From contig OZ242365.1 of the NCBI GenBank assembly GCA_965208905.1, positions 2,112,001-2,176,000 of the forward strand: a stretch of 64,000 nucleotides of DNA. The letters run 5' to 3'. The notes under the pieces were generated by a model. The model was given only the letters and a program-made list of their open reading frames with translations. It was not told the origin of the DNA and did no database searches. The position numbers and the translations under genes were made by a program. Below are positions 13,368-34,875 of this stretch, piece after piece. How positions within the stretch are numbered: the first letter of the stretch is position 1; each line of letters begins with the position of its first letter. The DNA is from Nitrosopumilaceae archaeon. Lineage in GTDB: Archaea; Thermoproteota; Nitrososphaeria; Nitrososphaerales; Nitrosopumilaceae.

Positions 13368-13413
13368 TTTTTATTCAAAAAATAATCGCCGTAATTAAGG
13401 GTTTTCTTTTTTA

Positions 13414-13464
13414 GGTTCTGGGAAATCAGTGGGACATGACGTATGGTGGGAAATTAGGGACATA
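13414..13464 (+). repeat. Left terminal inverted repeat
   Basis: GGTTCTGGGAAATCAGTGGGACATGACGTATGGTGGGAAATTAGGGACATA; contains two GGGAAAT..GGGACAT subrepeats. Confidence 0.9.
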
Positions 13465-13718
13465 GTTGGTGGTTGTTAAGTTAACGTGAGTCGGGGGGCT
13501 GGTAAGTTGGCGTGTGTTGGGTGAGGGTGGAAAGTACGTGTGTTGGGGATCTTCTCAAGAATGAAAAAGGAAGTAGATGGTTAGGCTCCGGCCCCGACCC
13601 ATAGCCTGGCTAGTTGCCAAAGAAGGGGCAAATCAGTCACCCACCTAAACTGTTTGTGGGTTTAAATTATTTGCAGGTAAATTCCTACCAATCAACAGGC
13701 ATTCACACATTACTATCT

Positions 13719-14453
13719 CTAGCTATTTTTGTGTCTTGGTGGTGATTCTACACCGTCAAGATTTCTGAACGTATCCAGTGGCGGTTTGGGTATTTTTTTT
13801 TCCGTACGCTTGTATTGTTTCTTTGAAACTTGATCAATGTACCCAAAATGTGACAACATGTCAATTATTGCATGTATTGGCTGCCTGTTTTCTACAATTT
13901 TCTTTCCTAAAACTGTCAACTCAGCCTTTGAAAATGCTTCACCTTTAAAATGAGAATCAATTCCTCTAATTGCTCTTGCCAATAATGATTCGGGGTTATG
14001 AAATGAACCCAAGTTGATAGCACGTCTTTTGATTCCATTGACACTAACATAACAAATGTAGATGCTTGTATCATAGATATTTTTATGATATGCATACTTG
14101 GCTTTTATTCCCTTTATCATTTTTTGACCATACGTTTCTTTAAAAGGCAGTCTTTCATAATTTGCCTTCAACGAGTCTTCATACGATGACGAGTCTACAA
14201 AGGATTTATCTGGATTAATAATCTGTTTAACATCTCTGATTAGATTCAGATTAAGAAAAATTTGTTCGCCATAGGAGGTAGGCTTTGCGATGATTAGATT
14301 TCTCTTAATTAATTCGTCTAGTGCTGATCTGCCTTGACCTCTATCACTTTTTGGAAACCCTTTGAGAGTGTTTTCTTTAGAGGTGTGTTTACCGCCAATA
14401 CATCTTAGATTGTACAATCGTTTAAGCACAGTTTTGTGATACTTGTTATACAT
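13719..14453 (-). CDS. Hypothetical basic protein, probably with winged-helix-like domains
   Basis: N-terminal 'IGGKHT...KGFPK...ALDELIKRNLI..KPTSYG' and C-terminal 'IIDMLSHFGYIDQV'; divergent from an HTH gene. Confidence 0.6.
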   Translation of the reverse strand: MYNKYHKTVLKRLYNLRCIGGKHTSKENTLKGFPKSDRGQGRSALDELIKRNLIIAKPTSYGEQIFLNLNLIRDVKQIINPDKSFVDSSSYEDSLKANYERLPFKETYGQKMIKGIKAKYAYHKNIYDTSIYICYVSVNGIKRRAINLGSFHNPESLLARAIRGIDSHFKGEAFSKAELTVLGKKIVENRQPIHAIIDMLSHFGYIDQVSKKQYKRTEKKIPKPPLDTFRNLDGVESPPRHKNS

Positions 14454-14586
14454 TTTAGCTATAATAGCACTTAGGTGTCAGTATTTATAAGCATTGTGCC
14501 ATAAAAGTCACAATATGTGTATCAAATTGTAGTACATGAGTTATTAAAACCCAACCTTTATGTGTAAGTATATGTCATAACATGTA

Positions 14587-14985
14587 ATGAATGAGCAGGT
14601 TATGGGATCCAAAGATGCAAGTACGTTAGAATGGCTAATTTCTGGTAATGCTAGTGCGAAGTTGCTGGATTTTTTCATAACATACAGAGATTTCGATTAC
14701 TCAGAAACAGACATTGCAGAATCTTCAAGAGTTTCTAAAAGAACCGTTTTTAGGGAACTGCCAAAATTCCAATCAGCAGGACTGATAAAATTCACAAGAA
14801 ACGTGGGACGTGCAAAAATGTTTAAGCTTGATCCAGAATCCGAGGCAGCAAAACTGTTAGAAAGGTTTGTTTTTGAAGTTGCAACAAGAAGAATAGATGG
14901 GGTTCTTGCTAAGGAAACAATGCAGGAACGTATTGATGTAGCCACAGAAAGAAGCCAAGAAACCCCATTAAGAAATAGCATGTAG
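14587..14985 (+). CDS. Winged-helix transcriptional regulator
   Basis: 'LLDFF..YRDFDYSETDIAESSRVSKRTV...L....GLIK.TRNVGRAKMFKL'. Confidence 0.8.
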   Translation: MNEQVMGSKDASTLEWLISGNASAKLLDFFITYRDFDYSETDIAESSRVSKRTVFRELPKFQSAGLIKFTRNVGRAKMFKLDPESEAAKLLERFVFEVATRRIDGVLAKETMQERIDVATERSQETPLRNSM

Positions 14986-15496
14986 GATCACTCATTTTCT
15001 ATAATCAACCACGGTATTAAAAAATTAGGAAAGCGGCTTCATCCAGCAGCCGTCCCTGCCGTTAGGCAGCCAGCTGAATCCGCTCAGTCTCAGGATGTCG
15101 TTTATCTCGCGCCATACCGGCTTGCCAATCCATCCCTTTGGCACCGTCCTGATGCAGTCGACCTCGTTTGAGATCGTGACCTTTTTGATCCTTTTTCACA
15201 GCCGGCGCGCAAAGTTGTCTTTTTGCGCACCCTGCGAGATCAGTTCCTTGATCTTGTCCCTTCCGAGGCCTAGCCTACATAGGTGGAAATATAGGTCAGG
15301 TCAGCATTTCTTCCCACTTCGGGTCAGCACTTTCCCTAGGTCAGCATTTCTCCCCAGTCCCCCCAGAGTGGAAATTGTGGTTGGTACCGCCGTTTCCACT
15401 CCGCAGCACGAAATTTTCGGACATACATTTTACTCCATGTATCTTTTTTGACAGCCGTGGACCATTACCGTTTTTTGATAGTCCACGGATCGCGGA

Positions 15497-15829
15497 ATGT
15501 TTAAGGATTGGTGGGTGGGATTCTACCTAATGCCGATAACGCCAGAGGAATGGGATAGTGGTCGGGTGGACGTTTCTACCACCATACGAACAAAAATCTT
15601 GAACTTCCTTGATGATGGGAACGCATACAGTTGTAAGGAGATTTTATGTGGACTAAACCCACAAGATGAATATATCTTGCACAGGGAATTTCCGGGGATG
15701 TTAAACAACATGGCCCATACACTACGTGTAATGGTCGACGACGGACAACTTGAGACCAAAAGCGTGATGTTGTCGAGGGGGCAGAACCAGAAAAATGTCG
15801 ACTACTATCGCAAACCAAAATCCACCTGA
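15497..15829 (+). CDS. Small winged-helix-like hypothetical protein
   Basis: 'KILNFLDDGNAYSCKEI...LRVMVDDGQLETK...YYR'; true start probably ATG 15530. Confidence 0.6.
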   Translation: MFKDWWVGFYLMPITPEEWDSGRVDVSTTIRTKILNFLDDGNAYSCKEILCGLNPQDEYILHREFPGMLNNMAHTLRVMVDDGQLETKSVMLSRGQNQKNVDYYRKPKST

Positions 15830-16028
15830 ACATCCCACACGGTTCGGCGCTTGTGCGTATGTGGTTGGTGGATAACACGTCCTTTGGACAAAAACCATAT
15901 CCGTCGCTTTCTACCATGATTCGTGTCCTCGGAACCTACTAGAACCACCGTGATTGGTTGGGAAGTTGTGTGAGTATGGCATCAACCGAAAAAGAGAGAT
16001 ATGATCCTTAACAGGTAACGTTTCTGCT

Positions 16029-17105
16029 CTAGCCGTGGTCATGGGGAGGTGTGAATGCCAGAGCACCGTTCTTTACAAACCCATAGGCAGCCTTCAGTGA
16101 GGCCCGTACCACATCAATGTTGTTCGGCTCGAACCACTGTTCCACCAACACGATCCCCTCACCGGCGGTCTTGATGGTCTGACCGTTGAAGTCTGTGGTT
16201 TTGATCTCGGCGTTGGATATGCGTGTTATGTCGGTCGCGGCTTCGGGCGAAACAGAGATTAGCGCCATCCCCTTCTTCAACCTGTTCTTGATTATGCCTA
16301 CTATCTCTGCATCTCTGTACGAGAACCCAATCACCAACAACACGTCAACCCTGTCAACCTCCTTCTTGAAACGCTCAAACAGTGAGTGAAACGGCTCATC
16401 ACCGTAGTTTTTCGAGCCTTCGGTGGGGGCGATAACAATATCTTTTTTGCCACCTCTCGGTGCAGGCACGCCGGCTTCCACAATCTGACCGTCAACATCC
16501 TCGTGCCAAAATATGGAGCCGTGTAGTTTTAACAGGCGCATGTAGTTGGTGGCATCGATTGACCACCTGTCTGCCCAAATGAAGATCCCGCGGCCACCCT
16601 CCACGAATCCATTGACAACGCTTAGATTTTTCTTGTAGCAGTACCTCTCCAGCACATTATCGTAGTTGGTCGTAAATACTAGAAATTCATCCGCACTACT
16701 GTCGTTCACAATAGCTCTGACCATATCGTACATCCATACAATCTGATTGTCAACAATCGATTTTATGACGAATGATTCAAACAGAACGTCGCTGATGATG
16801 GACTGAGTATGCCTCAATTCGTCAAGTGTCTGCTTGAACGTGTTGTCGCTACCATGCAGTACGTTAAAAATCGGCTTAATGTTGGGTGTATCGTTGGACA
16901 AGCGTAGCACCCTATCTATCCCATCGTACAATTTCTCGACATCTGAGTAGTCACCTTTGTCGATGATGGTTTTAGTGATTTGACTCATGCCACGCCCGCC
17001 CTTCTCATTGCTGACACGCGTCCGCACACTGTCCATCAACTCTACCGTGGTGGGCAGACCTGCAAACGCCGAGGCCCCGGCTCCGAGAAACAGGGCGGTC
17101 TTCAT
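16029..17105 (-). CDS. SIR2-like (SIR2_2) domain protein, candidate NADase defence effector
   Basis: 'FLGAGAS', 'FTTNYD', 'KLHGS', 'LLVIGFSYRD'; start at MKTALF (17105). Confidence 0.85.
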   Translation of the reverse strand: MKTALFLGAGASAFAGLPTTVELMDSVRTRVSNEKGGRGMSQITKTIIDKGDYSDVEKLYDGIDRVLRLSNDTPNIKPIFNVLHGSDNTFKQTLDELRHTQSIISDVLFESFVIKSIVDNQIVWMYDMVRAIVNDSSADEFLVFTTNYDNVLERYCYKKNLSVVNGFVEGGRGIFIWADRWSIDATNYMRLLKLHGSIFWHEDVDGQIVEAGVPAPRGGKKDIVIAPTEGSKNYGDEPFHSLFERFKKEVDRVDVLLVIGFSYRDAEIVGIIKNRLKKGMALISVSPEAATDITRISNAEIKTTDFNGQTIKTAGEGIVLVEQWFEPNNIDVVRASLKAAYGFVKNGALAFTPPHDHG

Positions 17106-17719
17106 GTACCATACGGGAGGAATGATGTCATAAATCCTTTTGCGGTCTGGGGGGCTGTAACATCTTAGAGGGATGAGGTACGTCTGGTGGGACTGTAACA
17201 AGAGGGGGATGGCCTCACACCAGGGCTGTAAAGTTGACGGGACATAAAGTCAGGGACATGGGATCTTCTCAAGAATAGCACGGGGGTTAAATCTGTGACC
17301 TGACGCACTTTCCCTTCCGAATTATTCAATACTGTGAAAAGGTAATTCTCTTGTGTCGTATTCATCAGCACCATGTCTTACTCCCCCAGAAGGAGACTTT
17401 ACGGGGAATGTATGCGCCCATTATGTGATAACTTTGCAATCCTCGGGGGGCTGTAAAGTTACTGTGTACTAGATGGCACTGTAAAGTTGTGTGCTGGGAT
17501 CAGATCTTCTCAAGGTTCCGGAAAGTTGCAGGAGTGTGGGCCAGAGTAGAAAGCAAGGGAGGTTCTGTGAAATTGGTGGGACGTGGGCTAGGGTGCTACG
17601 AAGCCCGTCACGAACCACGGTTCTGGGAAATCTGCGTGTGATGTGTAATCCTGTCAAAAACGTGTGATGAATCTTCAAGAACATGAGCCGGAGTGGAAAG
17701 ATGGGGCCGGAGTAGGGCG

Positions 17720-18643
17720 CTAACTTGGTGGCTTGGTTGGTTGGAAGTCTACCTTGAAGTCAGATTGCATTAGGCCAGCAGTCATCACCAGTTTGTTCGC
17801 GTATCGGATGATGTTAGACGGGCCAACATTGGTGAAGACATAAAGTTTCCCGATTTCTCGATAAGTACTAAACAACTTACCAGTGGGATGTTTTGGTTCT
17901 ACATGCAGTAGGTAGTTCCTTGGACCAATACGGATGGGACAATGCTGTGCGGTAAGGTGTCCGTTGTTAATCAACCACTCGGCCACACTACCCAACAGGT
18001 CCACCCATGACTCTAAGGCCTTTTGGCTACCATCTCTGTGTATGAGAATTTTGGGATGACTGGACCCCTTCTTGTAGGTGACATTTTCCAGCACAATCCC
18101 AGGCACATGCCTAATTGGTGGTCTTGTCTCCGGATGCAGCATCTCGTACATCTCATCGATCTTCTTAATTGGCGTGATCGTGTGTCGCGGCATGTTCCCC
18201 AACACAACGACCCGGTGCAGGCGTATGGCCTTAGATATCACCATCCCCTCTGAATCAGTGACATCAAACTCGGCCTCCGGACTCTTTGTTGTGGCGTTGG
18301 CATCATACATCCTCCATTTCCGCCCGTTTGTCAACACACCATATCTTACATTACGCCCCCTAACATAGTCAATTAGTTTATCCGTGTACTTGTCTAAATT
18401 CTCGTCCAACTTCTTGGCCTCGACAATCATGGCCTTGTGCCCAAGGGTGTAGTCAGTCTTGCCACCGGGACCGGTGTTGTCTTCCGGTACCACCTCACTG
18501 GGGTTGGACAAGTCCCAATCCAGTTCGCGCAACAATGGATCAATCAATGCATACCGGGTCATCGTTTCGTTCTTGGAGAGTGCTACCTCATGAACATTGA
18601 TTGTCTGCTGAATCTTCGCAATCACGTCAAGGAACTCCTGCAT
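17720..18643 (-). CDS. HsdR N-terminal-like PD-(D/E)xK nuclease domain protein with an uncharacterised C-terminal domain
   Basis: 'NETMTRYALIDPLL..LDWD', 'DYTL...IVEAKK', 'GVLTNGRKWRMYD'. Confidence 0.8.
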   Translation of the reverse strand: MQEFLDVIAKIQQTINVHEVALSKNETMTRYALIDPLLRELDWDLSNPSEVVPEDNTGPGGKTDYTLGHKAMIVEAKKLDENLDKYTDKLIDYVRGRNVRYGVLTNGRKWRMYDANATTKSPEAEFDVTDSEGMVISKAIRLHRVVVLGNMPRHTITPIKKIDEMYEMLHPETRPPIRHVPGIVLENVTYKKGSSHPKILIHRDGSQKALESWVDLLGSVAEWLINNGHLTAQHCPIRIGPRNYLLHVEPKHPTGKLFSTYREIGKLYVFTNVGPSNIIRYANKLVMTAGLMQSDFKVDFQPTKPPS

Positions 18644-19059
18644 GGTTCTATGCCTGCCGTACCTGCATATAAGCATGTAATTGTCTGGGGACTGCCACAT
18701 CTACGTCACCTAGGTAACACGCGTCACCTACGGATCTTCTCAAGATGGCTGTATGATCCTGCTGACCTAGCCGAGACTGTATAATTGCTGACCTAGAGTG
18801 GGAATGGGGGTTTTCGTACATCAGGTGTGTGGAGTGGAAATCTAGTGAGATGGAAATTGTACGTTTGGAATGAACATCCCCGACCCCATTGAAGCTAGTT
18901 CCTTAAATGGGATGAGTATGATAGAGTGGTATGGGAATATATTTCGCTGAGGAGGAACTGGTGGTGTCCTTAGAGTCTTACGAAAACCTACACTACTGAT
19001 GAAAACATCTACTCGTACTCAACATTTAGCAGATGAACAGTGCAGAAACACTTTCCCTG

Positions 19060-20691
19060 CTACCTCCAAACACTAACCATTCCAAACGCTTCATTTAGCA
19101 CTCTTTCAATCTCCAATTCATTGGCTTCGCCGCCAGAGCTACTTTCTTGGAGTTTCGACTCAACCAATTCGAGCACGATTTTAGTTTTGGTTTTTCCTAT
19201 AACACGGAAAAGCCCGTTATGATATTTGGTCCCGTAGGCATCCTCAATTGCTTTAATGAGTCCTTTTTTGGGTTGCTCTTGTTTTGCTATTTCATCATCA
19301 GATACGCTTTGTCCATACTTCTTTAGGTGAGAATTTATCAGATTGATTATAGACTCTCGCTCAAAATTGTCTCCTTCAAAGCTGGTGTTCCATATGTGGT
19401 GTTTAAATTCCCCGCCAAATCTCTGTTGTATTCGTCTAAGCTCGGTTTTCCAGTTCAACTCATCATCAGCAATCAAGTATATTGCAATCGAGTCTATGCG
19501 AGCAGATTGAATTATAAAATCAATGTTGTTGGCAATCATGTTGGTTACACCTTTTCTATTAACTATCCTCACAACGTCATCATCAAGACTGATCCCACGT
19601 TTTTTACAAATTTTTTTGATTACCGCCTCTTCCGTTTTACCCTCTACCAAGAGGTAAAGTCTGGTTGAAGTATCCTGTACAAAATACCGAACTATTGCCT
19701 GTTTGGTCTTGTGCGTCTTATAGTCGAATGGTTTCGAATACACGCGCTCTTTCCATTCGGCATTATCAAAGGGCATATTCGGAACACCGGTCTTCCCATC
19801 CAACTCGTGCAGAAACAACGCCAGCATCCGCGCAGCCGTGTAGTATAACTGCGCAGTGTAAGCATCCCCTTTTATTTTCTCTACGACTGATGGTCGCATA
19901 ATTCTGATCAGATCATACCATTCCATTAATGGATCAAGGAAACGTACCTGCGCGTCAAACCGATTAAGAGTACGACGAACTTGTTCTATTGGAACCCCGA
20001 TATCTTCCAAAAGATCGCTGACACTAAAACTGTTTCTCCACTCTAACCACATCTCTTGGAAGCGCTTGATGCCAACGGTAAGAGGGAACGGTATGGAATT
20101 GTAAACGTAAACTGAATAGCGTTCCTCCAATAGCATTAGCATTCCTATATCTTTGATTATATCTAGCTGCGATGAGTTAAACCAGTCGTCTCTCAACATG
20201 TTAGTCTCAACATTGTTCATCACTTGTTTAAGGTCTGATTTAGTGTATGAATCAAAGTATAAAAAGCGAACTTCTTTGAAATGAAATATGTTCTTGACTT
20301 GAAGGATTTGGAATTTGTGATAAAAGAGCAGTTTTTTGTCGCGTTTTAAGCTTTTGGGCTCGGACTTGAAATTACTCCACGGTTCAAAGTCTCCGACCTG
20401 TGGAAGCTCTATATGCCCAGCTGCATAGAATTCCTGGATGGCATCAAGTCCATAATACAGATCTCCACGCCGCTGCTGTTCGGGCAAAACCAGCCGGAAA
20501 GCCGGCTGGAGCCACCCTTCACGTTCAAAGCTTTCCAAATCTTCTTCTCTAATTCTGATCCCATGTTTCTCTAGCAAACGGACGAATCCATGTGGTTGTT
20601 CAAAGTCGCCATGCATGTATGGCCGCATCATTTTTTTCCGGATGTACGGCGAGAGTCCAGCATCCATGTCATGGAGAAGCGTATGAGGCAA
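19060..20691 (-). CDS. Hypothetical protein with a C-terminal OLD-like TOPRIM domain
   Basis: 'LLVEGKTEE', 'VNRKG', 'IADDE', 'SFE'; the N-terminal ~340 aa are unassigned. Confidence 0.65.
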   Translation of the reverse strand: MPHTLLHDMDAGLSPYIRKKMMRPYMHGDFEQPHGFVRLLEKHGIRIREEDLESFEREGWLQPAFRLVLPEQQRRGDLYYGLDAIQEFYAAGHIELPQVGDFEPWSNFKSEPKSLKRDKKLLFYHKFQILQVKNIFHFKEVRFLYFDSYTKSDLKQVMNNVETNMLRDDWFNSSQLDIIKDIGMLMLLEERYSVYVYNSIPFPLTVGIKRFQEMWLEWRNSFSVSDLLEDIGVPIEQVRRTLNRFDAQVRFLDPLMEWYDLIRIMRPSVVEKIKGDAYTAQLYYTAARMLALFLHELDGKTGVPNMPFDNAEWKERVYSKPFDYKTHKTKQAIVRYFVQDTSTRLYLLVEGKTEEAVIKKICKKRGISLDDDVVRIVNRKGVTNMIANNIDFIIQSARIDSIAIYLIADDELNWKTELRRIQQRFGGEFKHHIWNTSFEGDNFERESIINLINSHLKKYGQSVSDDEIAKQEQPKKGLIKAIEDAYGTKYHNGLFRVIGKTKTKIVLELVESKLQESSSGGEANELEIERVLNEAFGMVSVWR

Positions 20692-21567: not shown

Positions 21568-21687
21568 TGGATCTATTCTCAAGATCCGCCATGTACCCCA
21601 TGCAACACCATCAGTCATATACCGAAGATGCAACAGTTCCTTCAGTCTAGGCACGTAATACCCACACTAAACAAAAAATAAAAAAAC

Positions 21688-22020
21688 TTACTTTCTCTTA
21701 GCCTTTGTAGCTGCCTCTATGAGGGCCTTCCACTTGTTTGTACCCTCGATATGTACACCTGCCGCCTCCGCGGGCGTCTGACCATTCGGCAACCCCTGAT
21801 GCTGCCGCACATAGTTATGATATGTCTTCAAGCCACTTACTATGGGTGAGTCCTCGCGTTTGAGACCGCGCGTTGCCTCCTCGCGATACCCGAGCGTATT
21901 ACCATTGAATGACTCCATCTAGTTGTTGTGGTGTATGCCATCAAATGCAACATCCTTGATGTGTTCGGTATCCTTATGTGTAAAGTTCTTTGATTCATAC
22001 TGGGTGCCTTGACCATATCT
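21688..22020 (-). pseudogene. 3' fragment of a second IS6-family transposase
   Basis: 'QYESKNFTHKDTEHIKDVAFDGIHHNN*MESFNG...GLKREDS...TPAEAAG' closely matches the C-terminus of 33558-34679; has an in-frame stop. Confidence 0.85.
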
Positions 22021-22521
22021 TTTTTTAACCGTAAAATTTTGCTTATCATAGGCGGGATCTCGATAGCCGTCACGGCAGTCGTGGCGACAGAGGTGTACGA
22101 CTACGTGTACTTTGAGGTGCCCATCAAGAACGCCGTACCTTCGGAGGGGTACGCGCATGTCGATCTTGTGCCGGTGGCCCAGACGGTTCATCCGTACACG
22201 ATCGAGGACATCACGCATGATCCCATAAACGATGCCATAACGGTCACCTTCAAGGGAGGCACTCACCCCGTTACGCGGGAGCGCGTGGTTTTTGAGTATG
22301 TTGAGACGTATTCCGTAAACGAGTCGTTTGCTTTCAGATGTGACGAATCAGAGGGCGGATCGTACTTGGTGTTTTACGGGTATCTGAGAGTGGAGAGAAA
22401 GAACGGCACGGACTACATGCGCCTTTTACACTACGACGGGACCACACATGGACCGATGCCGTGCATCTATCCTGACGTGATAATCCACTCAAGGGTATCA
22501 ATCCCCCCAGCAGAGCCTTGA
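22009..22521 (+). CDS. Membrane-anchored hypothetical protein
   Basis: N-terminal hydrophobic helix, 170 aa. Confidence 0.55.
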   Translation: MTISFFNRKILLIIGGISIAVTAVVATEVYDYVYFEVPIKNAVPSEGYAHVDLVPVAQTVHPYTIEDITHDPINDAITVTFKGGTHPVTRERVVFEYVETYSVNESFAFRCDESEGGSYLVFYGYLRVERKNGTDYMRLLHYDGTTHGPMPCIYPDVIIHSRVSIPPAEP

Positions 22522-24047: not shown

Positions 24048-24049
24048 GG

Positions 24050-26120: not shown

Positions 26121-26921
26121 TCACCGTCGTTTTAAACGAGCTGGATGCCTGTACTCACGTTTGATTTCGCCGTTGCTTGCCAGACGGCTTTCAATTATCT
26201 CGCAATATCTGGGTTGTATCTCGCAGGTCAGGTAGTTCCTGCCCAAGTTCTTGGCTTGAACCACTTCCGAGCCGCTACCGCCAAATAGTACGAACACCGT
26301 ATCGCCCGGAACAGTGCAAGATTTGATGAGCAGCTCTGAGAGTGTCTCTGGTATCTGGCACGGGTGGTTTGTCTTTTGGCGAGACACGTTCTTAACCAAG
26401 TTTAAATTTATCCAAGAATAGAGCATGCGTCTCAGATGTCCCTGCCTTATTCGCTCCTTAATGCGCACATCATCCGGGTTCTGATATGGCTGTGCCACCT
26501 GTTCTTTGTAAAAGCGGTTGTTCCTAGATTTGGTGGCGTGGAGGATAGAGCGGTGGGCGGTGTTGAACCGGCGCCTGGAGTGGCCCACGTTGGTGTTATA
26601 GATCCAAACATAGTCGTGCACTGAGTAGACGTTCTCGTCAAGATAACTTACGCACAGATACGCGTTTTGCTTGGGATAGTTGATGAAAAACAGGTTACCG
26701 TCAGGCTGCAAGACGCGCAGGCACTCTTGCGCCAAATCCACGTACCATTTCACGTACTCATCCCAAGAAGACGTAAAGGCAGTTCCCTGATATTTGATGC
26801 CAACGTTGTAGTCTGGATCGCCATATATCATATCAATGGAATCATCCGGCAATCTCCTTAGCGTCGCCATTACGTCCTCGTTGACGACGCGGTTGCGGTA
26901 TTTTTTAGGTAGTGTGGTCAT
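26121..26921 (-). CDS. DNA N4-C/N6-A methyltransferase (beta class)
   Basis: Catalytic motif IV variant 'DPDY' precedes 'HPCQIP' and motif I 'LFGGSGS'. Confidence 0.88.
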   Translation of the reverse strand: MTTLPKKYRNRVVNEDVMATLRRLPDDSIDMIYGDPDYNVGIKYQGTAFTSSWDEYVKWYVDLAQECLRVLQPDGNLFFINYPKQNAYLCVSYLDENVYSVHDYVWIYNTNVGHSRRRFNTAHRSILHATKSRNNRFYKEQVAQPYQNPDDVRIKERIRQGHLRRMLYSWINLNLVKNVSRQKTNHPCQIPETLSELLIKSCTVPGDTVFVLFGGSGSEVVQAKNLGRNYLTCEIQPRYCEIIESRLASNGEIKREYRHPARLKRR

Positions 26922-26923
26922 CG

Positions 26924-27697
26924 CTACACCAGCACGTACTCGGCATTACGCCTGAGCACTATAGAACCGGGATCATGAGGGTCTTTGAACGTGTACAGAT
27001 ACAGACGTATCTTATTGCCGTGGCGCAGCAGGTAGCAGCACTCTATTGAATCGGCTTGCAGGTTATCTATCTTGTCTGCATAGTACCGATACGGGTGAAA
27101 AAGTTGAAAAACGTTAAAGTCGTGCGGTTCGCCGTTTTTTGCCTCGAATATGATTATCTGGCCTTGGAATTCCGTGGTGAGGTCAATCTCAAGTTGCAGT
27201 TTATTGCATTGAATGGTATCACCGCCTATGCTATAGTCAAACGTGGCAAACGTTCGGTGAGCGCCATAGACTTTCGGTGATGCGGTTATGTCCCTGTACA
27301 GGAAATCATGTATGATGCGCTGGTTGTATCCCACCGACAGGATGTTGCTCTCGCTGGTGTTCGTGTTGTCCAGTATTCCCGGCCGGTGGTACCACTGGAA
27401 CCTGTCATTGGCCGATACGGCTTCAAACTTATGGTAGCCGATATCAATGCCACGCACAAACTTGTGCATGCCGCGCCCCAAATGCACTACAAATACGTCG
27501 TCTGCTACCAACACATCGGGCAGCCTTGTCGTGCTGTCCAACTTGGTAACGTCATACTGATTGCTAAACTCAACTTTAGTGGACACGGCCTTGACATCTT
27601 TGTTGCTAAAAACAAAGTCACGCTTGGACTTGCACGCATCGTACAGCTTGGCAACCACCACGCCTTTTCTGCCTATGCGCTGTTGTACCATTGTCAA
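26924..27697 (-). CDS. Putative type II restriction endonuclease
   Basis: PD-(D/E)xK motif 'QLEID......IFEAKN'; directly upstream of the MTase. Confidence 0.75.
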   Translation of the reverse strand: MTMVQQRIGRKGVVVAKLYDACKSKRDFVFSNKDVKAVSTKVEFSNQYDVTKLDSTTRLPDVLVADDVFVVHLGRGMHKFVRGIDIGYHKFEAVSANDRFQWYHRPGILDNTNTSESNILSVGYNQRIIHDFLYRDITASPKVYGAHRTFATFDYSIGGDTIQCNKLQLEIDLTTEFQGQIIIFEAKNGEPHDFNVFQLFHPYRYYADKIDNLQADSIECCYLLRHGNKIRLYLYTFKDPHDPGSIVLRRNAEYVLV

Positions 27698-27967: not shown

Positions 27968-28318
27968 TCAGTACAAGGCCGCCGTCTTCTCCATCCATGC
28001 CCGGATGGACTTCACGCTCTCGCCTCTGCCCACGTACTTGCCGTCCAGCAGGTCGGCCCCCTCGTGGACGTAGCTGCCCACCTTGTCCACCACGAAGTGC
28101 ACCGCCTCACCCTCCGGACCGGCCGTACGCCAGACGCTCACGCTGCACGGGGCCGCCGACGCCGCATGCTCGGCCGCCTTGCCGTAACCGTCGGGCGTCT
28201 TGAGGAACTGTAAAGAACTCGTGACCTGGCGTATAGTGTAAAGCGCGTGACCTAAGGAGGCCAGAGATATGGTTATATAAACAAAATCAAGTATGTTAGA
28301 AAACATATCTAAAACCAA
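27968..28318 (-). CDS. Small hypothetical protein; start uncertain
   Basis: GC-rich 3' part with protein-like sequence 'VHFVVDKVGSYVHEGADLLDGKY'. Confidence 0.35.
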   Translation of the reverse strand: MVLDMFSNILDFVYITISLASLGHALYTIRQVTSSLQFLKTPDGYGKAAEHAASAAPCSVSVWRTAGPEGEAVHFVVDKVGSYVHEGADLLDGKYVGRGESVKSIRAWMEKTAALY

Positions 28319-28387: not shown

Positions 28388-31300
28388 TTGGATGCCGACA
28401 GTTTTGGCAAAACACTTCAACACCTTCGTACCATTTGTAATGATGAGGGTAACACCAAGGGCAGCCTCTTCGAGAAGTTGGTGCGGTCGTTTCTAAAGAC
28501 TGATAATCTGTACGCCGACAGGTTTGTTGAAGTATACGCGTGGAAGGACTACCCGGGACGTAACGGGCGGGGTGACTTTGGCGTTGATTTGGTCGGTGTT
28601 GAGCAGGATGGCCAACTCTGTGCGATACAATGCAAGTTCTTTGACAAGACAACCCTCACCAAACGCAGCATAGACAGTTTCTTGGAGGCTGGTTCGCGCT
28701 CGGAGTTTGACTCCATGATGCTGGTGTATGTGGGTGGTGGCTATGGCAAAAACGTACAGGATGCGTTGGAGGGTCATGGGTGTAAGGTGTTGAACTTCGA
28801 GTCACTGTCCGAGAGTAACGTGGAGTGGCCTGATTTGGCCGCTGGCCTGACTGACATCAAGCCTAGAAAGGCACGCCCGTTGTGGGACCACCAGAAGGAG
28901 GCGATGAGTAATGTTATATCCAAACTGGAAAACAACAACCGTGGACAGTTGATAATGGCGTGTGGGACGGGTAAGACATTAACATCTTTACGGCTGGCCG
29001 AAAAAACAGTGGGTGAGGGCGGTCTTGTGTTGTATGCAGTACCATCCATATCACTAATGCGACAGGTGATACGTAACTGGGCCGGGGACCGAACCCTACA
29101 GCATGGATATGTGGGTGTTTGCTCCGACAACACGGTGTCCCGTGGCCAGACCGACATACCAATCATAGAGATGGAGATTGGTGTGAGTACAGATGAGGAT
29201 CGTATAGCCTCGGTGATGCGCCGGGACTCCTCTAAAATGACCGTTATATTCACAACATACCAGAGTATGGAGGTTATTGAGAAGGCCCAGAAGTTGTCCG
29301 GGGAACCATTCGACTTGGTATTATGTGATGAGGCTCACCGTACCACCGGCGTAGAGAAGGGGTCGGCATTCACTATCATACATGACGATGAGAAGATACA
29401 GGCGCGCAAACGAATCTACATGACAGCCACACCAAAAATATACAAGCGCGCGGTCAAGACAAAAGCCGCCAATGAGGATGTGGTATTATATTCTATGGAT
29501 GATGATTCGGTCGAGTCCAGGAGTGTATTTGGACCGGTAATGTTTAGACTGAGTTTCTCAGATGCCATAGACGCGAAACTACTGACCGACTATGATGTGT
29601 TGACGTTGGGTGTCTCTGAGGAATATGGTGGTAAGATACTACAAAAGATTGTGGAAACGACTGGTGATGATGGCGATATTAACCTGACGGACGCGGCCCG
29701 TATGGCTGGATTGTACCGCGTGTTGGAGCGGCCAGACCCAGACAATGACGTGTTGCCACTCCAAACCGCCATAGCGTATACCAACCGTATATCTGACTCA
29801 AAGCGGTTCGCCAACAGTTTCAAGAATCTTATGATGGAGCCTGCCGGTAGTGTAGAGTTTGCTTGTGATGCCGAACATGTAGACAGTACACAAAACTCCA
29901 CCGCACGGGATAAGGCGATGCAGTGGCTACGAGATTCTGACCAGGACTCCAATGAATGTCGTGTGGTGTCTAACGCCAAATGTTTGTCTGAGGGTGTGGA
30001 CGTACCGGCACTAAGTGCGATCACGTTCTTAAACCCCAAGTCGTCCGAGATCGACATAATACAGGCCATCGGTAGGGTGATGCGGAAGCATAAAGGTAAG
30101 GAGCGCGGTTATGTGATTATACCGTTGGGGATACCACCGGACACCGAGCCTGAGAAAATACTGAATAATGAAAAGTCATTTGGTGTGGTGTGGAATGTGT
30201 TGAGGGCGTTGCGGTCACATGATTCACGGCTGGACGTAGAGGTTAATACAGCAGATTTGAAGAAACAGTTGCCTAAACGCATAAAGTTCATTGGGATAGA
30301 TAGAGAGGGAAAACGCGTCGACAATGAGGAGGGAGGAAAATCATTCTCATTGGGTGAATTGGATGTGCCAGCCGATGCATTATATTCTCGTATAGTGGAG
30401 GAGGTAGGCGACAGGCAATATCTGGCGCGGTGGGCGAACGATGTCGCAGCCGTGGTGTCCCGTATACAAGAGCGTATTGGGGTAGTGGTTGCGGACGGTC
30501 CTGCGCGAGACAAATTCGGTGCGTACATGGTGGGTCTGCGCGATATAATACACGATACAATATCAGAGTCCGAGGGTATTGGGATGCTTGCCCAACACAT
30601 GGTGACCAGACGGATATTCGGTGCTATGTTTGGGACAGATAACTTTGCGCAATCCAATCCAGTGTCGGCTGCGCTCGACGCGGTACTGAATGAGTTGCGT
30701 GCGCATGGTCTGGATACTGAGCTACGTGATTTGGAAAAGTTCTACAACTCCATAGAGTTGCGTGTCGCTGGGTTGGACTCACATGATGCCCGGCAGCGCG
30801 TTATATCTGAACTATACGGGACATTCTTCAAGAAGGCATTTTCCAAGATGGCTGACCGACTGGGGATAGTGTATACACCAACTGAAGTAGTAGATTTCAT
30901 ACTGCGGTCAGTTGACCATGTGCTGCGGGAGAACTTTGGAAGGGGACTGACCGACGAAGGGGTGAATGTGATAGACCCATTCACAGGTGCCGGTACGTTC
31001 ATTGCGCGTATGATGTCCAAGGATTTGGACTTGATACGGGATGAGGATATTGAGCGAAAGTATGAATACGAGATATTCGCCAACGAGATTGTTTTACTGG
31101 CGTATTATATCGCGGCGGTCAACTGCGAGTCCATGTATGGCCAGCGTACCGGGTCTTTCAAGCAGTTCGAGGGACTGTCATTTACGGATACGTTCAGCCC
31201 TGGTAACTTGGATGAGCACACCGGTGACGTGATGGCCGGGCCCAAGAAACGCATCAGGAGGCAGCGGGAGGCGAAGATTACGTGTATAGTGGGCAATCCA

Positions 31301-32515
31301 CCCTATTCGGCGGGGCAAAAGTCGGCTAATGAGGATAACAAGAACGTAAAATACCCTGCCATAGAGGGTCGTGTCAAGGACACATACATTAGGATGGCAC
31401 CTAAAGGGAATCAGGTATCATTATACAACTCATACATTAAGGCTCTACGGCAGGCATCTGACCGTATAGGTGAGTCTGGTGTGATAGGGTTCATCACACC
31501 CTCTGCATATATCACCGGAATTGCCGAGGCCGGAATACGTGCCTGTCTGTATGAGGAGTTTACTGATGTGTATTGTTTGGATTTACTTGGTCAAAGAGGA
31601 ATGAAAAATAATGGTAATAGTATATTTGGGAATAGTGGTAATGAAGGCGGTATAACTGTTGGAGTTGCCATAACCATACTGGTTAAGAACCCACGAAAGA
31701 GTGGATGTACTATCCATTACAGCAAACTACCAACAAACGATTTTTACTGTGAGGAAAAACGTGCTAGGGTAAAGCAGTTGGGCCTTGTGGCCAACATAAC
31801 AGACTGGCAACCAATAACCCCAAACAGGTACCACGACTGGTTAGACCAGCGTGGTGAGGCAGACGAATCATGGCAGAAGTATTTGCCCATTGGTAGTAAA
31901 GATGCCAAACGCGGGAAAACTAACAAGGTTATGTTCAGTACATATTCGCGTGGACTTGCCACAGCTCGAGATGGCTGGGTCTACAACACGTCAAGAACAA
32001 AACTTACCGAAAACATGAAGCGACATATTGACTATTGTAACACACAGGACATTGACAACTTCACAATAGACCCAAAGCAGGCGAAATATAATACGGAGCT
32101 CGCAATCGAACTCAAAAAACTCCACAAACAGAACACAGTACCCACGTTGAACGAGTCGCATATACGAACGGCGCTGTTCCGCCCATTCCTCAAACAAAAC
32201 TTGTATTTTGACCCGACATTCATTGCAGCCAAGTACAAGATTCCCAAGTTCTTCCCGCATGGCGACGTGAAGAACCCCACCATCATGGTTCCCAACAAAA
32301 CCAAAGGAGAATTCTCCACGATAGTCATGGACCGCACACCGGACCTGCAAAACGTCGTGAACGGGCAGGCATTCCCCTTGAAGGCAAAGATACAAAACCA
32401 TGAAAATGTACGTCGGGTAGGAAGACTCCAGACTCCAGACTCCAGACTCCAGACTCCAGACTCCAGACTCCAGACTCCAGACTCCAGACTCCAGACTCAG
32501 AGAATCTGTCAATAA
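28388..32515 (+). CDS. Type ISP restriction-modification enzyme (nuclease-helicase-MTase-TRD), truncated at a tandem repeat
   Basis: Mrr-like 'D.GVDLV...IQCK', helicase 'MACGTGKT', 'DEAH', 'TATP', 'QAIGRVMR', MTase 'DPFTGAGTF' and 'GNPPY', TRD 'ATARDGWVYN'. Confidence 0.92.
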   Translation: MDADSFGKTLQHLRTICNDEGNTKGSLFEKLVRSFLKTDNLYADRFVEVYAWKDYPGRNGRGDFGVDLVGVEQDGQLCAIQCKFFDKTTLTKRSIDSFLEAGSRSEFDSMMLVYVGGGYGKNVQDALEGHGCKVLNFESLSESNVEWPDLAAGLTDIKPRKARPLWDHQKEAMSNVISKLENNNRGQLIMACGTGKTLTSLRLAEKTVGEGGLVLYAVPSISLMRQVIRNWAGDRTLQHGYVGVCSDNTVSRGQTDIPIIEMEIGVSTDEDRIASVMRRDSSKMTVIFTTYQSMEVIEKAQKLSGEPFDLVLCDEAHRTTGVEKGSAFTIIHDDEKIQARKRIYMTATPKIYKRAVKTKAANEDVVLYSMDDDSVESRSVFGPVMFRLSFSDAIDAKLLTDYDVLTLGVSEEYGGKILQKIVETTGDDGDINLTDAARMAGLYRVLERPDPDNDVLPLQTAIAYTNRISDSKRFANSFKNLMMEPAGSVEFACDAEHVDSTQNSTARDKAMQWLRDSDQDSNECRVVSNAKCLSEGVDVPALSAITFLNPKSSEIDIIQAIGRVMRKHKGKERGYVIIPLGIPPDTEPEKILNNEKSFGVVWNVLRALRSHDSRLDVEVNTADLKKQLPKRIKFIGIDREGKRVDNEEGGKSFSLGELDVPADALYSRIVEEVGDRQYLARWANDVAAVVSRIQERIGVVVADGPARDKFGAYMVGLRDIIHDTISESEGIGMLAQHMVTRRIFGAMFGTDNFAQSNPVSAALDAVLNELRAHGLDTELRDLEKFYNSIELRVAGLDSHDARQRVISELYGTFFKKAFSKMADRLGIVYTPTEVVDFILRSVDHVLRENFGRGLTDEGVNVIDPFTGAGTFIARMMSKDLDLIRDEDIERKYEYEIFANEIVLLAYYIAAVNCESMYGQRTGSFKQFEGLSFTDTFSPGNLDEHTGDVMAGPKKRIRRQREAKITCIVGNPPYSAGQKSANEDNKNVKYPAIEGRVKDTYIRMAPKGNQVSLYNSYIKALRQASDRIGESGVIGFITPSAYITGIAEAGIRACLYEEFTDVYCLDLLGQRGMKNNGNSIFGNSGNEGGITVGVAITILVKNPRKSGCTIHYSKLPTNDFYCEEKRARVKQLGLVANITDWQPITPNRYHDWLDQRGEADESWQKYLPIGSKDAKRGKTNKVMFSTYSRGLATARDGWVYNTSRTKLTENMKRHIDYCNTQDIDNFTIDPKQAKYNTELAIELKKLHKQNTVPTLNESHIRTALFRPFLKQNLYFDPTFIAAKYKIPKFFPHGDVKNPTIMVPNKTKGEFSTIVMDRTPDLQNVVNGQAFPLKAKIQNHENVRRVGRLQTPDSRLQTPDSRLQTPDSRLQTQRICQ
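32423..32498 (+). repeat. Heptanucleotide tandem repeat (AGACTCC)x10 plus AGACTC
   Basis: Counted directly; encodes RLQTPDS with no stop in any plus-strand frame. Confidence 0.97.
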
Positions 32516-32621
32516 TCGTACCGGACAAGATCAAAGGCGAGTTCTCGGTATTCATAACGGATATGACACCGGACTTGGAGGTGGTTCACCACGGCCAAGT
32601 ATTCCCGATGAAGGTGATGAC

Positions 32622-33281
32622 ATGAAGGATAACATCACCGAGTGGGCGCTGGAACAATACCGCCAAATATACAAAGATGACACAATAACCAAACAGGACA
32701 TCTTCTACTACACGTATGGTGTGCTGCACAGCCCAGGATTCCGGAAGAAGTACCAGGCGTTCTTGGTGCGCGGCATCCCCAACATTCCGTACGCCCCTAA
32801 CTTCCGTGCCTTTGAGAAGGCGGGTCGCGAGCTCGCATACCTACACCTCAATTACGAGACCTGCCCACGGTACGACTTGGGCGAACCACTACATCCAATA
32901 CCGAACCAACCCAAAAAGATAGCGTTTGGTAAGAAAGCCCGCGACGGGCCTGGCCCAGACACCGCAGACGACCAGAGCAAACTCCTGTTGGATGGTATAC
33001 TGGTGTATGACATTCTCCCTATTGTTACGTATCATGTAAATGGTAAGACCCCCATTGGTTGGTTTGAGGACAGATACGGCTTTAGTATAGACCACAAGGG
33101 TAAGTCGGGCAACACTAACTGGCCACTGGAAGGTGTCGGTGGAGATACGATACGCGCCATAATAGAACGGCTCGTATACGTTGGTGTGGAATCAGATAGA
33201 ATAATACAAAACCTGCCGGAGGAGTTTGAGATGGAAGTTAAACCACAGGAGCCTACCGGCTTGGACATGTATACTGCCTGA
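32622..33281 (+). CDS. C-terminal part of the type ISP specificity domain
   Basis: 'DNITEWAL...ITKQDIFYYTYGVLHSP.FRKKY...P.IP', 'AGRELA.LHLNYE', 'Y.VNGKTPI.W' typical of type ISP C-termini. Confidence 0.88.
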   Translation: MKDNITEWALEQYRQIYKDDTITKQDIFYYTYGVLHSPGFRKKYQAFLVRGIPNIPYAPNFRAFEKAGRELAYLHLNYETCPRYDLGEPLHPIPNQPKKIAFGKKARDGPGPDTADDQSKLLLDGILVYDILPIVTYHVNGKTPIGWFEDRYGFSIDHKGKSGNTNWPLEGVGGDTIRAIIERLVYVGVESDRIIQNLPEEFEMEVKPQEPTGLDMYTA

Positions 33282-33329
33282 ATTACACTATGTGTAATTC
33301 ACAGACTAACATTACTATGTGACTGAAGC

Positions 33330-33473
33330 CTATCTTACCCTTGCCTTGTTCCAGTACGGCGACTTACACTTCTTGTTGTTGCAGTGTTTAGGGGATTCGT
33401 TTCGACTGTACCAAACCTCGCCGCATCTGTTGCACTCGTGCTTCCAATACGCACCCTCAACCTTCGTGCTCAT
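33330..33473 (-). CDS. Small zinc-ribbon protein (47 aa)
   Basis: MSTKVEGAYWKHECNRCGEVWYSRNESPKHCNNKKCKSPYWNKARVR; divergent from the transposase. Confidence 0.7.
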   Translation of the reverse strand: MSTKVEGAYWKHECNRCGEVWYSRNESPKHCNNKKCKSPYWNKARVR

Positions 33474-33557
33474 ACTGTACGATACACGTACCACACATAT
33501 AACTGATACCCATATATACCCAGAACCCCTATATATTGTAACTGACATAGTGGAATC

Positions 33558-34679
33558 ATGAAAGGCACCACGCGAGAACTCCGGGGCAGACAGATAAAGC
33601 CCGACCAAATCGCGAAGGTTGACGAACATACCTATACAGTAAGATCCCAGTCATCCGAAGGGGTATACGAGTTGATGTCCACCGAGCACGGGTGGATATG
33701 TAGTTGTCCGGACCACATGTACCGGGGTGTCTGTTGCAAGCATATTCACGCCGTTGAGATATCCAAGAGGATGCGCGAGGCCGTCCAGCAGGGGACCATT
33801 ATACGACAGGTGGACCTGGGTAGATGCAAGCGCTGCGACTCGGACAACATTGTCAAGCAGGGGATGCGCAAACTCAAGAGGGGACCCGTCCAAGGGTACA
33901 AGTGCAAGGACTGCGGTAAGCGGTTCACGCACAATCTCGGCTTTGAGAAAAAACATGCCACACCCGAACAGATTACACAAGCCGTAGATTTGCTGTTTAG
34001 TGGCTTGTCTAGCAGGAAGGTTGCCAAGAGCCTTGAGATGACAGGCTTCAAGATCACCTACAAGACCGTTCAGAATTGGGGTAAAGAGTATGCTGAGATA
34101 ATGGAACGGTTCGCCGACACCATCAAACCACAGGTCGGAGAGACTTGGCGCACTGATGAATTATATCTGAAAATCAAAGGTAACCGCAAATATCTATTTG
34201 CCATGCTTGATTCTGAAACTCGCTTTTGGATAGCCAAGATGGTAGCCACCCACAAAGGCAATGATGACGTCGCGCCGATGTTTAAACAGGCCAAGCGTGT
34301 AGCGGGTAAAGTCCCAACTACGCTGTATAGTGACAAGGCCGCCAACTTTCACAATGCATGGAAGAAGCAATACAAATCAAAGAACTTTCTGCACAAAGAG
34401 ACCGAGCATATACATGATGTTGCCTTTGATGGTATCCACCACAATAACCAAATGGAGAGCTTCAACGGAGCAACACTACGACACCGTGAAAAAGTAACCA
34501 GAGGGCTTAAGCGTGAGGACTCTGGTATTATTACTGGATTACGACTCTACCATAACTTTGTCAAACCACATGAAGGACTCCCAGACAAAATTACACCCGC
34601 CGAGGCCGCAGGTATTGCCGTAGAGGGAGATAACAAATACCTGACCCTCATTCGAGCCGCCGCAGAGTCGGCGACTTAA
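33558..34679 (+). CDS. IS6-family DDE transposase with N-terminal SWIM finger and zinc ribbon
   Basis: SWIM 'CSCPD......CKH', 'CKRC..CKDC', HTH, DDE 'WRTDELYLKIKG', 'YSDK', 'NNQMESFN'; intact ORF. Confidence 0.88.
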   Translation: MKGTTRELRGRQIKPDQIAKVDEHTYTVRSQSSEGVYELMSTEHGWICSCPDHMYRGVCCKHIHAVEISKRMREAVQQGTIIRQVDLGRCKRCDSDNIVKQGMRKLKRGPVQGYKCKDCGKRFTHNLGFEKKHATPEQITQAVDLLFSGLSSRKVAKSLEMTGFKITYKTVQNWGKEYAEIMERFADTIKPQVGETWRTDELYLKIKGNRKYLFAMLDSETRFWIAKMVATHKGNDDVAPMFKQAKRVAGKVPTTLYSDKAANFHNAWKKQYKSKNFLHKETEHIHDVAFDGIHHNNQMESFNGATLRHREKVTRGLKREDSGIITGLRLYHNFVKPHEGLPDKITPAEAAGIAVEGDNKYLTLIRAAAESAT

Positions 34680-34691
34680 TCTCTCATTTTT

Positions 34692-34742
34692 TATGTCCCT
34701 AATTTCCCACTATACGCCATGTCCCACTGATTTCCCAGAACC
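34692..34742 (-). repeat. Right terminal inverted repeat
   Basis: Reverse complement matches 13414-13464 at 49/51 positions. Confidence 0.9.
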
Positions 34743-34875
34743 CTTTTTTATAAAAATTAGGTTGCACTAGGATCAGGCGTATGGTAGATGCGCCAAGCAT
34801 TATACAAACGAGTGTATCTATAGCAGAGTCTATCGCGCAAAGGGTTAAATCAATACTATATGTGATAGAGTTATT

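Follow-up and report, generated by a model that had tools for sequence, protein, structure and literature searches.

A 21-kb defence-gene element with long two-part ends in a Nitrosopumilaceae archaeon: a probable unit transposon of an apparently undescribed family

Positions 13414-34742 of a 64,000-nt stretch of a Nitrosopumilaceae archaeon genome (contig OZ242365.1, positions 2,112,001 to 2,176,000, hereafter the window) form an element of 21,329 bp that lies between purC and a tRNA-Asn gene and carries a set of defence genes. The hallmarks of a unit transposon are present: one pair of inverted repeats, one cognate transposase, passengers inside, a target duplication and an empty site elsewhere. 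We conclude that the element is probably such a transposon, which duplicated its 8-bp target and moved as one, and would put this reading at about 65%. The transposase is intact and belongs to a family whose members habitually carry cargo.

Ends, target duplication and empty site

The terminal inverted repeats are 51 nt long (Table 1), complementary at 49 of 51 positions and separated by 21,227 nt. Each arm consists of GGTTCTG and then two direct subrepeats of 18-20 nt with an 8-nt spacer between them, the left-arm subrepeats being 13419-13438 and 13447-13464. Both mismatches, at arm positions 26 and 32, fall inside the spacer, and GGTTCTG and the two subrepeats are the same at either end. By length the pair ranks second among the inverted pairs of region 12000-36500. 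The arms contain an exact inverted match of 25 nt; when the same region was shuffled 100 times, palindromes counted in, the longest exact match per shuffle had a mean of 15.1 nt and a maximum of 22. Directly outside either arm stands the 8-mer CTTTTTTA, and the probability of two random 8-mers matching, calculated from the source genome, is 2.2e-5. On the left the flanking gene is purC (SAICAR synthetase, 11924-12769); on the right, 125 nt downstream of the element, is tRNA-Asn (34876-34952), beyond which lie MsrA and a TtuA-like gene. What the first-pass annotation had described, namely the 51-nt repeats beginning GGTTCTG, the identical flanking 8-mers and the housekeeping genes just outside, is borne out.

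That annotation also proposed looking for an empty site with a single 8-mer in related genomes or reads, and such a site is present in Logan contigs of sponge and marine metagenomes, the runs coming from three studies. In three of the four runs examined (X7, X1 and X5) contigs run from the left flank straight into sequence that matches the window from 34751 on, and the 8-mer stands once at the join. The left flank is matched up to 13413 in X7 and X1 and up to 13411 in X5; past the junction the letters, compared by eye, agree with the window at 27 of 30 positions in X7, 27 of 30 in X1 and 26 of 28 in X5. The X7 flank is without difference over 13273-13413 and shows 30 differences over about 1,612 nt, the 8,288-nt contig of X1 shows 56 over 11197-13413 (2,217 nt), and X5 is represented by two short records. 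Left-flank identity of these populations is about 97.5-98%. The 30-mer from 34751 onward occurs once in the genome, even allowing 5 substitutions. A contig of the fourth run, X24, stops exactly at 13413 without a loose end and is uninformative on the join. That related populations join the flanks with one 8-mer is exactly what transposition predicts. The empty site shows one insertion-type difference and is silent on whether all 21 kb was aboard at landing.

The last two letters of the target site vary, being TA here, CG in the related genome G005, CA in X5 and TG in the genome G008. In both occupied genomes the duplicated copies share the local allele (TA/TA here, CG/CG in G005), as duplication of the resident target would give. 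Among the species-representative genomes searched an empty site was not found: G005 is occupied, the contigs of G008 break at the site, where the letters after the 8-mer are unrelated, and gene order at the locus differs in the more distant genomes. In G005, with a flank 95% identical, the same nucleotide is occupied by another member of the family, 12.1 kb long (L019:1010-13108, G005:C1). This member has its own duplication CTTTTTCG, a transposase 48% identical to the window enzyme and type IIG-like cargo; the locus holds a further 3.5 kb of inserted DNA. Since a different member has landed at the identical nucleotide, this T-rich site, which lies 125 nt from the tRNA-Asn gene on its upstream side, has served as a target more than once. 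G005 also holds about 2.8 kb of extra DNA relative to window positions ~35523-35529.

A family of cargo-carrying elements

The transposase gene ends 12 nt short of the right repeat. Its product matches Pfam DDE_Tnp_IS240 at 54.2 bits against a cut-off of 27, with rve also matched, and the NCBIfam IS6 equivalog at 93.1 bits, under that model's cut-off of 125, IS1 being second at 52 bits. In an alignment of 32 family transposases the SWIM-like CxC...CxH residues (C48, C50, C60 and H62), the zinc ribbon (C90, C93, C116 and C119) and the catalytic D200, D259 and E300 are all invariant. On these matches the enzyme is only a distant relative of IS6. The first-pass description of an IS6 transposase abutting the right repeat was therefore right about an intact enzyme with a SWIM-like motif and a zinc ribbon close to the repeat, and loose in its label. 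Its view of the whole as an IS6-type element fares similarly: the GG start and 8-bp duplication agree with it, whilst the score below the NCBIfam cut-off, the ends of about 50 nt and the lack of a bare insertion sequence (IS) do not.

Divergent from the transposase gene, across a TATA-rich region, runs a 47-aa zinc-ribbon open reading frame (ORF). Counterparts occur beside some of the family transposases, 68-89% identical in four cases and 48% over 33 residues in locus L063. In G005 the zinc-ribbon ORF and the first ~32 transposase codons have 77% DNA identity to those of the window and the enzymes are only 48% identical, which suggests exchange of this module. The stretch 33473-33527 was considered as a terminal end and rejected; relatives have the TATA-rich divergent promoter there and the heptamer is unconserved.

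The source genome holds 13 full-length transposase paralogues at 37-87% identity, and for none of the 13 is there a left end within 700 bp of the transposase gene. When an inverted copy of the transposase's own right end was sought up to 45 kb upstream, nine were found to be paired. Four of these nine elements have perfect 8-bp duplications (Table 1), two are identical 3.6-kb elements with split duplications and three have none. The largest, of 34.9 kb, is a second and larger defence island bounded by family ends. Peptidases and a nested family transposase lie in it beside the cargo listed in Table 1, its SIR2 protein is a paralogue, and two extra left ends are stacked inside. Lone family ends also exist, for example at C1:1726841 (the prefix C1 marks positions in the source genome).

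Eight identical miniature inverted-repeat transposable elements (MITEs) of 171 bp accompany the family in this genome. They stand at C1 positions 347829, 470002, 470822, 474681, 489410, 644882, 1779678 and 1928312, and they stem from the transposase copy at C1:2095856-2096977, being made of a 51-nt end, the last 26 codons and a 30-nt end. Two retain intact 8-bp duplications, and among the remaining six the flanks have been exchanged pairwise, a pattern that points to several large inversions between copies, one of about 149 kb.

Beyond the source genome a family transposase was matched in 127 of 301 genomes of the class (E<=1e-20), a tally that includes the unpublished genomes G259, G173 and G307, used for this count only, and a wider protein search returned 3,053 proteins at E<=1e-10. 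One homologue, P0001, is encoded on a 1.78-Mb contig and agrees with the window enzyme at 370 of 373 residues. The few homologues that have names are called 'DDE-type integrase/transposase/recombinase' or, on two at NCBI, 'IS1/IS6 family transposase'. We surveyed 20 transposase loci from 11 other genomes, seeking the partner end within 18.5 kb. It was found at 11, and a perfect 8-bp duplication is present at five (2,557, 3,694, 6,671, 10,265 and 13,698 bp, in five genomes); the ends of locus L045 were set by hand ahead of the scripted duplication check. Perfect duplications are thus known for ten full elements, from 2,557 to 34,881 bp, and for two MITEs. The ends are 41-51 nt long and consist of GGNNCTG (GGTTCTG, GGAACTG or GGGGCTG, with one subtype TGAACTG) and then two subrepeats. 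No bare IS of about 1.3 kb occurs among the nine paired elements here and the 11 survey loci with a partner end.

Such end pairs enclosing different cargo with different duplications had been anticipated from the window alone, and they are found in three more elements here, in G005 and in five other genomes (2.6-13.7 kb). None of the outcomes by which the first-pass annotation would be refuted has been observed; that of a repeat always within ~1.5 kb of its transposase is at odds with elements spanning 2.6-34.9 kb. Restriction-modification or other defence genes are present in 11 of 14 delimited elements (Table 1), a count outside which the 14.7-kb and 17.4-kb pairs stand.

Cargo, relic ends and movement of the whole unit

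Between the repeats lie 19.9 kb of cargo, a mosaic of defence modules along which GC content swings from 30% to 53%. On sequence matches, several recognised defence genes cluster in the element, as in a defence island. The first-pass list of Sir2, HsdR_N, TOPRIM, QatC-ASCH, type II and type ISP genes holds, with the corrections that the type ISP gene is split between frames and that the interior also holds relics of other family members. The QatC-like protein scores 90.6 bits in NCBIfam, below a cut-off of 280 (PADLOC E=1e-22), and QatC is the sole Qat-system component matched. In the type II pair we infer that the DUF6996/DUF6997 protein is the endonuclease.

Table 1. Features of the window element, and elements of the same family with their cargo (window positions unless prefixed C1)
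Feature	Position	Strand	Size or content	Basis or remark
Left target-site duplication copy CTTTTTTA	13406-13413	.	8 bp	Lone copy seen in empty-site contigs
Left terminal inverted repeat	13414-13464	+	GGTTCTG and two direct subrepeats	
Relic left end	13469-13520	+		Same type as ends of element C1:1130912-1134320; 19/19 exact, aligned by eye
ORF without family match	13719-14453	-	244 aa	Family scan
Helix-turn-helix protein	14587-14985	+	132 aa	Family scan
SIR2-family defence protein	16029-17201	-	390 aa	Pfam SIR2_2; PADLOC SIR2 E=2.7e-24
Relic left end	17561-17585	+		21/25 to left repeat
Relic left end	17619-17669	+		87-89% to ends of 3,360-bp element
Protein with HSDR_N-like nuclease N-terminus	17720-18700	-	326 aa	Family scan
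OLD-type TOPRIM / DUF3226 protein	19060-20691	-	543 aa	Weak GajA-like match
Relic right end	21586-21640	-		Resembles ends of 3,602-bp elements; pattern-level likeness only
Family transposase relic	21691-22002	-	C-terminal ~100 aa	67% identical to intact residues 271-371
Low-GC (30-36%) operon	23661-25934	-	ASCH (128 aa), QatC-like QueC-family (415 aa), two small ORFs	
Type II restriction-modification pair	26121-27697	-	N4/N6 methylase (266 aa), DUF6996/DUF6997 protein (257 aa)	
Relic left end just upstream of type ISP gene	28204-28258	+		Inverted-pair search, end search
Type ISP enzyme	28388-33281	+	1375 aa + 219 aa	Mrr-type nuclease, helicase, coupler, methylase, specificity domain
Zinc-ribbon ORF	33330-33473	-	47 aa	Conserved beside some family transposases
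Intact DDE transposase	33558-34679	+	373 aa	Pfam and alignment of 32 family sequences
Right terminal inverted repeat	34692-34742	-		Sequence comparison of arms
Right target-site duplication copy CTTTTTTA	34743-34750	.	8 bp	Sequence comparison
Window element	13414-34742		21,329 bp	Perfect duplication CTTTTTTA
3,360-bp element	C1:18695-22054		N4/N6 methylase, 235-aa ORF	Perfect duplication GAATTTTT
8,983-bp element	C1:1100770-1109752		Eco57I-like type IIG enzyme	Perfect duplication GATATGGT
34.9-kb element (34,881 bp)	C1:1251085-1285965		Two type III Mod/Res pairs, SIR2, DUF3800	Perfect duplication GATACGTC
3,602-bp element			NotI-like endonuclease, methylase	
3,409-bp element			D12 methylase, HaeIII-type endonuclease	
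G005 12.1-kb element			Type IIG-like	
L053			Methylase-HNH fusion	
L054			GmrSD-HNH, fragmented EcoRI methylase	
L051			Methylase	
L047			Methylase fragment	One ORF scanned
L045			Surface Ig-like proteins	No defence gene
L050			Subtilase, nested IS	No defence gene
L059			195-aa ORF	No match

The type ISP gene is in two frames owing to an (AGACTCC)11 repeat at 32423-32499. Both frames traverse the repeat, the upstream one stopping at 32515 and the downstream one staying open over 32421-33281; by arithmetic the parts would fall in frame with one AGACTCC unit fewer than 11 or with two more. The homologue in G005 (L034) has 17 copies of AGACTCC in the same place and the same split, and that in G004 (L028) has a different 7-nt repeat, present nine times. 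To judge from these repeats this looks like slipped-strand phase variation of an archaeal restriction enzyme.

A search of 60 relatives for the whole 20-kb cargo gave only single modules, in other contexts: the type ISP module in G005, G003 and G004, the type II pair in G006 and G001, and short pieces elsewhere. The module 13719-14985 recurs at 95% identity in another context on a 22.7-kb contig of run X1. The segment 28204-33527 was considered as a nested non-autonomous element and dropped, as the type ISP module of G005 is without bounding family ends. Beside the transposase relic a 170-aa ORF (22009-22521, within region 21998-22600) shows 97% DNA identity to a short contig of G008. The chromosomal flanks of G008 are only 77-84% identical, which suggests recent exchange of the piece.

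Five of six relic ends in the 21-kb element are oriented as the left repeat, and the same is true of two of two in the 34.9-kb element and one of one in L047. The relic at 13469-13520 is complete and begins 4 nt inside the left repeat, oriented like it. At the internal relic-end pairs of the 21-kb element no 8-bp duplications were found when the flanks were read by eye.

Did all 21 kb travel together? The first-pass annotation held that the whole island moved as a single-transposase unit. The outer ends, the duplication and the empty site stand, and we think it probable that the full 21 kb was already on the element when it last jumped; the cargo is a mosaic with relic ends of other members, and accretion after a smaller insertion is a less likely alternative. 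In favour of movement as a unit, the duplication belongs to the outermost cognate ends. The 34.9-kb element here and a 13.7-kb element in G277 likewise have perfect duplications at their outermost ends, so that large family units appear to land whole. The stacking of the relic ends, mostly in left-end orientation, fits a Russian-doll model of growth, as does the tandem duplicate of the first 351 bp in one copy of the 3.6-kb element.

A number of observations weigh against this reading. A second copy of the 21-kb element was not found in the source genome or in 60 relatives, unlike the 3,602-bp member, which is present at two sites in identical copies, and the exact 25-nt end of the 21-kb element has no match in metagenome contigs and none in genome contigs, collections from which records close to the source genome may be missing. 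Three paired elements of the source genome (3.4, 14.7 and 17.4 kb) are without a duplication, and nine of the 20 surveyed transposases are without a partner end within 18.5 kb. The GC profile shows the interior to be a patchwork, and the relic ends and truncated transposase within it, none paired with a duplication, fit growth either after or before arrival. Noncoding DNA at ~17150-17305 and 17446-17614 resembles G005 DNA of the same locus at 83-92%, and some of the interior could in consequence be local rather than imported.

The last of these points are shared by the alternative that a small ancestor with the same ends and transposase inserted and then grew in place by later insertions and deletions, the 21 kb never moving whole. 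The relic ends inside (13469, 17619, 21640 and 28204) belong to three or more other end types and are accompanied by the truncated transposase, the GC swings and the G005-like pieces are as it would have them, single modules are found in other contexts elsewhere, and the genome is rich in active-looking copies, with its 13 transposases and eight identical MITEs. We nevertheless regard growth in place as unlikely, though by no means far-fetched. Fresh nested insertions would be expected to have 8-bp duplications of their own, which the internal end pairs, read by eye, lack; empty-site flanks that are 97.5-98% identical leave little time for multiple insertions and decay; the perfect outermost duplications of the 34.9-kb and 13.7-kb elements speak for arrival whole; and the pieces shared with G005 are 83-92% identical as against 91-95% for the chromosomal flanks, as for mobile rather than orthologous DNA.

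Two other routes have far less to commend them. The classical path for IS6 cargo (Varani 2021, PMC7986276, in its treatment of IS6) would make the element a pseudo-compound transposon of the IS26 type, in which two full IS copies bracketed the cargo and the left copy decayed to a lone repeat, and lone ends do occur in the genome, as at C1:1726841. We consider this very improbable, for the transposase gene has no left end beside it, the look-alike at 33473-33527 aligning with the promoter region of relatives; bare insertion sequences of ~1.3 kb are absent among the nine paired elements here and the 11 partnered survey loci; and what directly follows the left repeat is the end of another element and not transposase remains. 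The position 125 nt upstream of a tRNA gene, and the preference of most integrated Thaumarchaeota elements for tRNA genes as reported by Krupovic 2019 (PMC6563490), might instead suggest an island set in place by a site-specific integrase or recombination, with repeats and 8-mers incidental. Yet a scan of 21 ORFs inside the element, among them the zinc-ribbon ORF, gave no match to an integrase family, the boundaries are inverted repeats outside the tRNA gene and not direct att repeats, the 8-mers have the low chance of matching given above, and the same architecture is met with at many sites away from tRNA genes. An origin without transposition is thus scarcely credible, and movement as a unit transposon is the reading that we carry forward.

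Mechanism, known systems and meaning

The observations establish long ends in pairs, a single cognate DDE enzyme, a target cut with an 8-bp stagger and the mobilisation of long inserts. In the explanation that we propose, the transposition module sits at the right end and comprises the 47-aa zinc-ribbon ORF, the divergent promoter region, the 373-aa enzyme and the right repeat. As judged from the build of the arms, the transposase would bind both direct subrepeats of each 51-nt end, pair the ends, cut the target with an 8-bp stagger and move all DNA between the ends. By analogy with IS6 the likeliest route would be replicative and cointegrate-forming, followed by recombination between the two copies, which would leave a single copy with its own duplication; cut-and-paste transposition may be an alternative. 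Cargo was probably collected as other members inserted and then lost their transposase and right end, leaving stacked left ends. Growth of this kind would be like that of a Russian doll: a member that lands inside another loses its right half, and the larger unit so formed is afterwards moved by its outermost cognate ends.

The two 3,602-bp copies (C1:1337692-1341644 and C1:1851328-1854929) bear on the replicative route. They are 100% identical, in direct orientation, and have flanks arranged X[A]Y ... Y[B]X; one carries a tandem duplicate of its first 351 bp. The Y halves, which in the source genome stand at either end of the 510-kb arc between the copies and make up one target site, are contiguous with a single 8-mer on contig C2 of G005 (34691-34698). 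The X site could not be reconstructed, as the X flanks matched only repeated families in G005. Taken from the arrangement of the flanks, this would be either the layout left by fusion of a 0.51-Mb replicon with one of 1.7 Mb or an assembly mis-join through the 3.6-kb repeat; in the latter case two circles would give the same cointegrate-like picture.

Set together, these observations may describe an undescribed archaeal family with an IS6/IS1-like SWIM/zinc-ribbon enzyme, two-part ends of ~50 nt and 8-bp duplications, normally a carrier of restriction-modification and other defence cargo rather than a bare IS, that grows in the Russian-doll manner and may have brought about a 0.51-Mb replicon fusion. 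We offer this joint reading tentatively, as a possibility a little short of even.

How does the family stand to known systems? Tn3-family transposons have a single transposase, inverted-repeat ends, passengers and replicative cointegrates; they differ in transposases of about 1000 aa, 38-nt ends, 5-bp duplications and a resolvase. Among insertion sequences, the IS1595 and IS1-ISMhu11 groups (ISfinder) include members with passenger genes, the listed passenger-carrying IS being under about 5 kb, and IS1 and IS1595 ends are GGnnnTG with 8-9-bp duplications, resembling the GGNNCTG found here. Tn7-like transposons rely on the multi-protein TnsABC, make 5-bp duplications, use dedicated target selectors and are bacterial, whereas the present family has one small DDE enzyme and 8-bp duplications. 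What is shared is movement as single units with cargo rich in defence systems, as Benler et al. 2021 (PMC8649781) describe.

With IS6/IS26 (IS26, IS257, IS240) the family has in common a catalytic domain matching DDE_Tnp_IS240 and the 8-bp target duplication, and the cointegrate-like arrangement of two copies may be a further point of likeness. The N-terminal zinc-finger extension is present as in the long clostridial IS6 clades h/VII, and the SWIM-like CxC...CxH motif is a difference from IS6. IS26-type ends start GG with G at position 7 in the account of ends given by Harmer & Hall 2019 (PMC6807381), the same as in this family. The ends here are about 50 nt with two subrepeats as against the 14-20 nt stated for IS6 in the relevant passages of that paper and of the IS6 review (PMC6807381, PMC7986276), and the elements measure 2.6-35 kb, as against 0.7-1.7 kb, their cargo being enclosed by a single left end and a single transposase. 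The review presents ISDsp3 as the sole member with a passenger gene, cargo moving only between two IS copies (PMC7986276), and the long zinc-finger clades are described, where the two papers treat them, as clostridial (PMC7986276, PMC6807381).

The units of Furuta, Abe & Kobayashi 2010 (PMC2853133) are similar in having restriction-modification genes within long imperfect repeats, an 8-bp duplication and an empty site. The cases detailed there include Xanthomonas oryzae, with repeats of 60/65 nt, and Neisseria gonorrhoeae, with 26/26 nt (PMC2853133). In that paper the units are single bacterial finds, none with a transposase that is clearly active, and none from an archaeon was retained (PMC2853133). 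The window element, unlike those units, has its cognate transposase intact and belongs to a large multi-copy family that includes MITEs and has multi-system cargo of up to 35 kb. Transposons that ferry defence genes are accordingly known; the enzyme family, the end architecture, the archaeal host range and island-sized cargo are apparently undescribed. A description of the family was not found in the literature searched, though the supplementary IS tables of PMC6563490 might list thaumarchaeal IS6-like elements; that paper, which surveys the elements integrated in Thaumarchaeota, presents IS-like transposons as one- or two-gene elements.

The element offers a concrete vehicle for the assembly and spread of defence islands, a process that is least known for archaea. 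If the joint reading given above is correct, defence islands of 21-35 kb would travel whole as single mobile units, and replicative transposition by the same enzyme may have joined the 0.51-Mb replicon to the main chromosome. With one small DDE enzyme and long two-part ends, the family carries loads that range from one restriction-modification pair (about 3.4 kb) to islands of 21-35 kb, and the clean empty sites and target duplications make the insertion events readable. In sponge-associated Thaumarchaeota transposases and restriction-modification genes have been reported, separately, as enriched, the cause being called unclear in the passages concerned (PMC7848895). The family links these two enrichments and, if the joint reading holds, would explain their joint occurrence in sponge-associated ammonia-oxidising archaea. 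It also stretches the definition of IS6-like elements, for which the reviews, in their general descriptions, give ends of 14-20 nt and passengers almost never (PMC7986276, PMC6807381). For the biochemistry of archaeal cargo transposons it offers a simple system of two 51-nt ends, a 373-aa enzyme and perhaps a 47-aa partner.

Some further traces lie towards the edges of the window. An end-like sequence of the GGAACTGG type at 38-92 faces out of its left edge, and a transposase fragment (C1:2176801-2177034) is found about 800 nt past the right edge, with further family debris around the window. A motif of ~30 nt occurs three times (1443, 1593 and 1917) in the region 1-3000, of 54-60% GC, and is probably a repeated protein domain.

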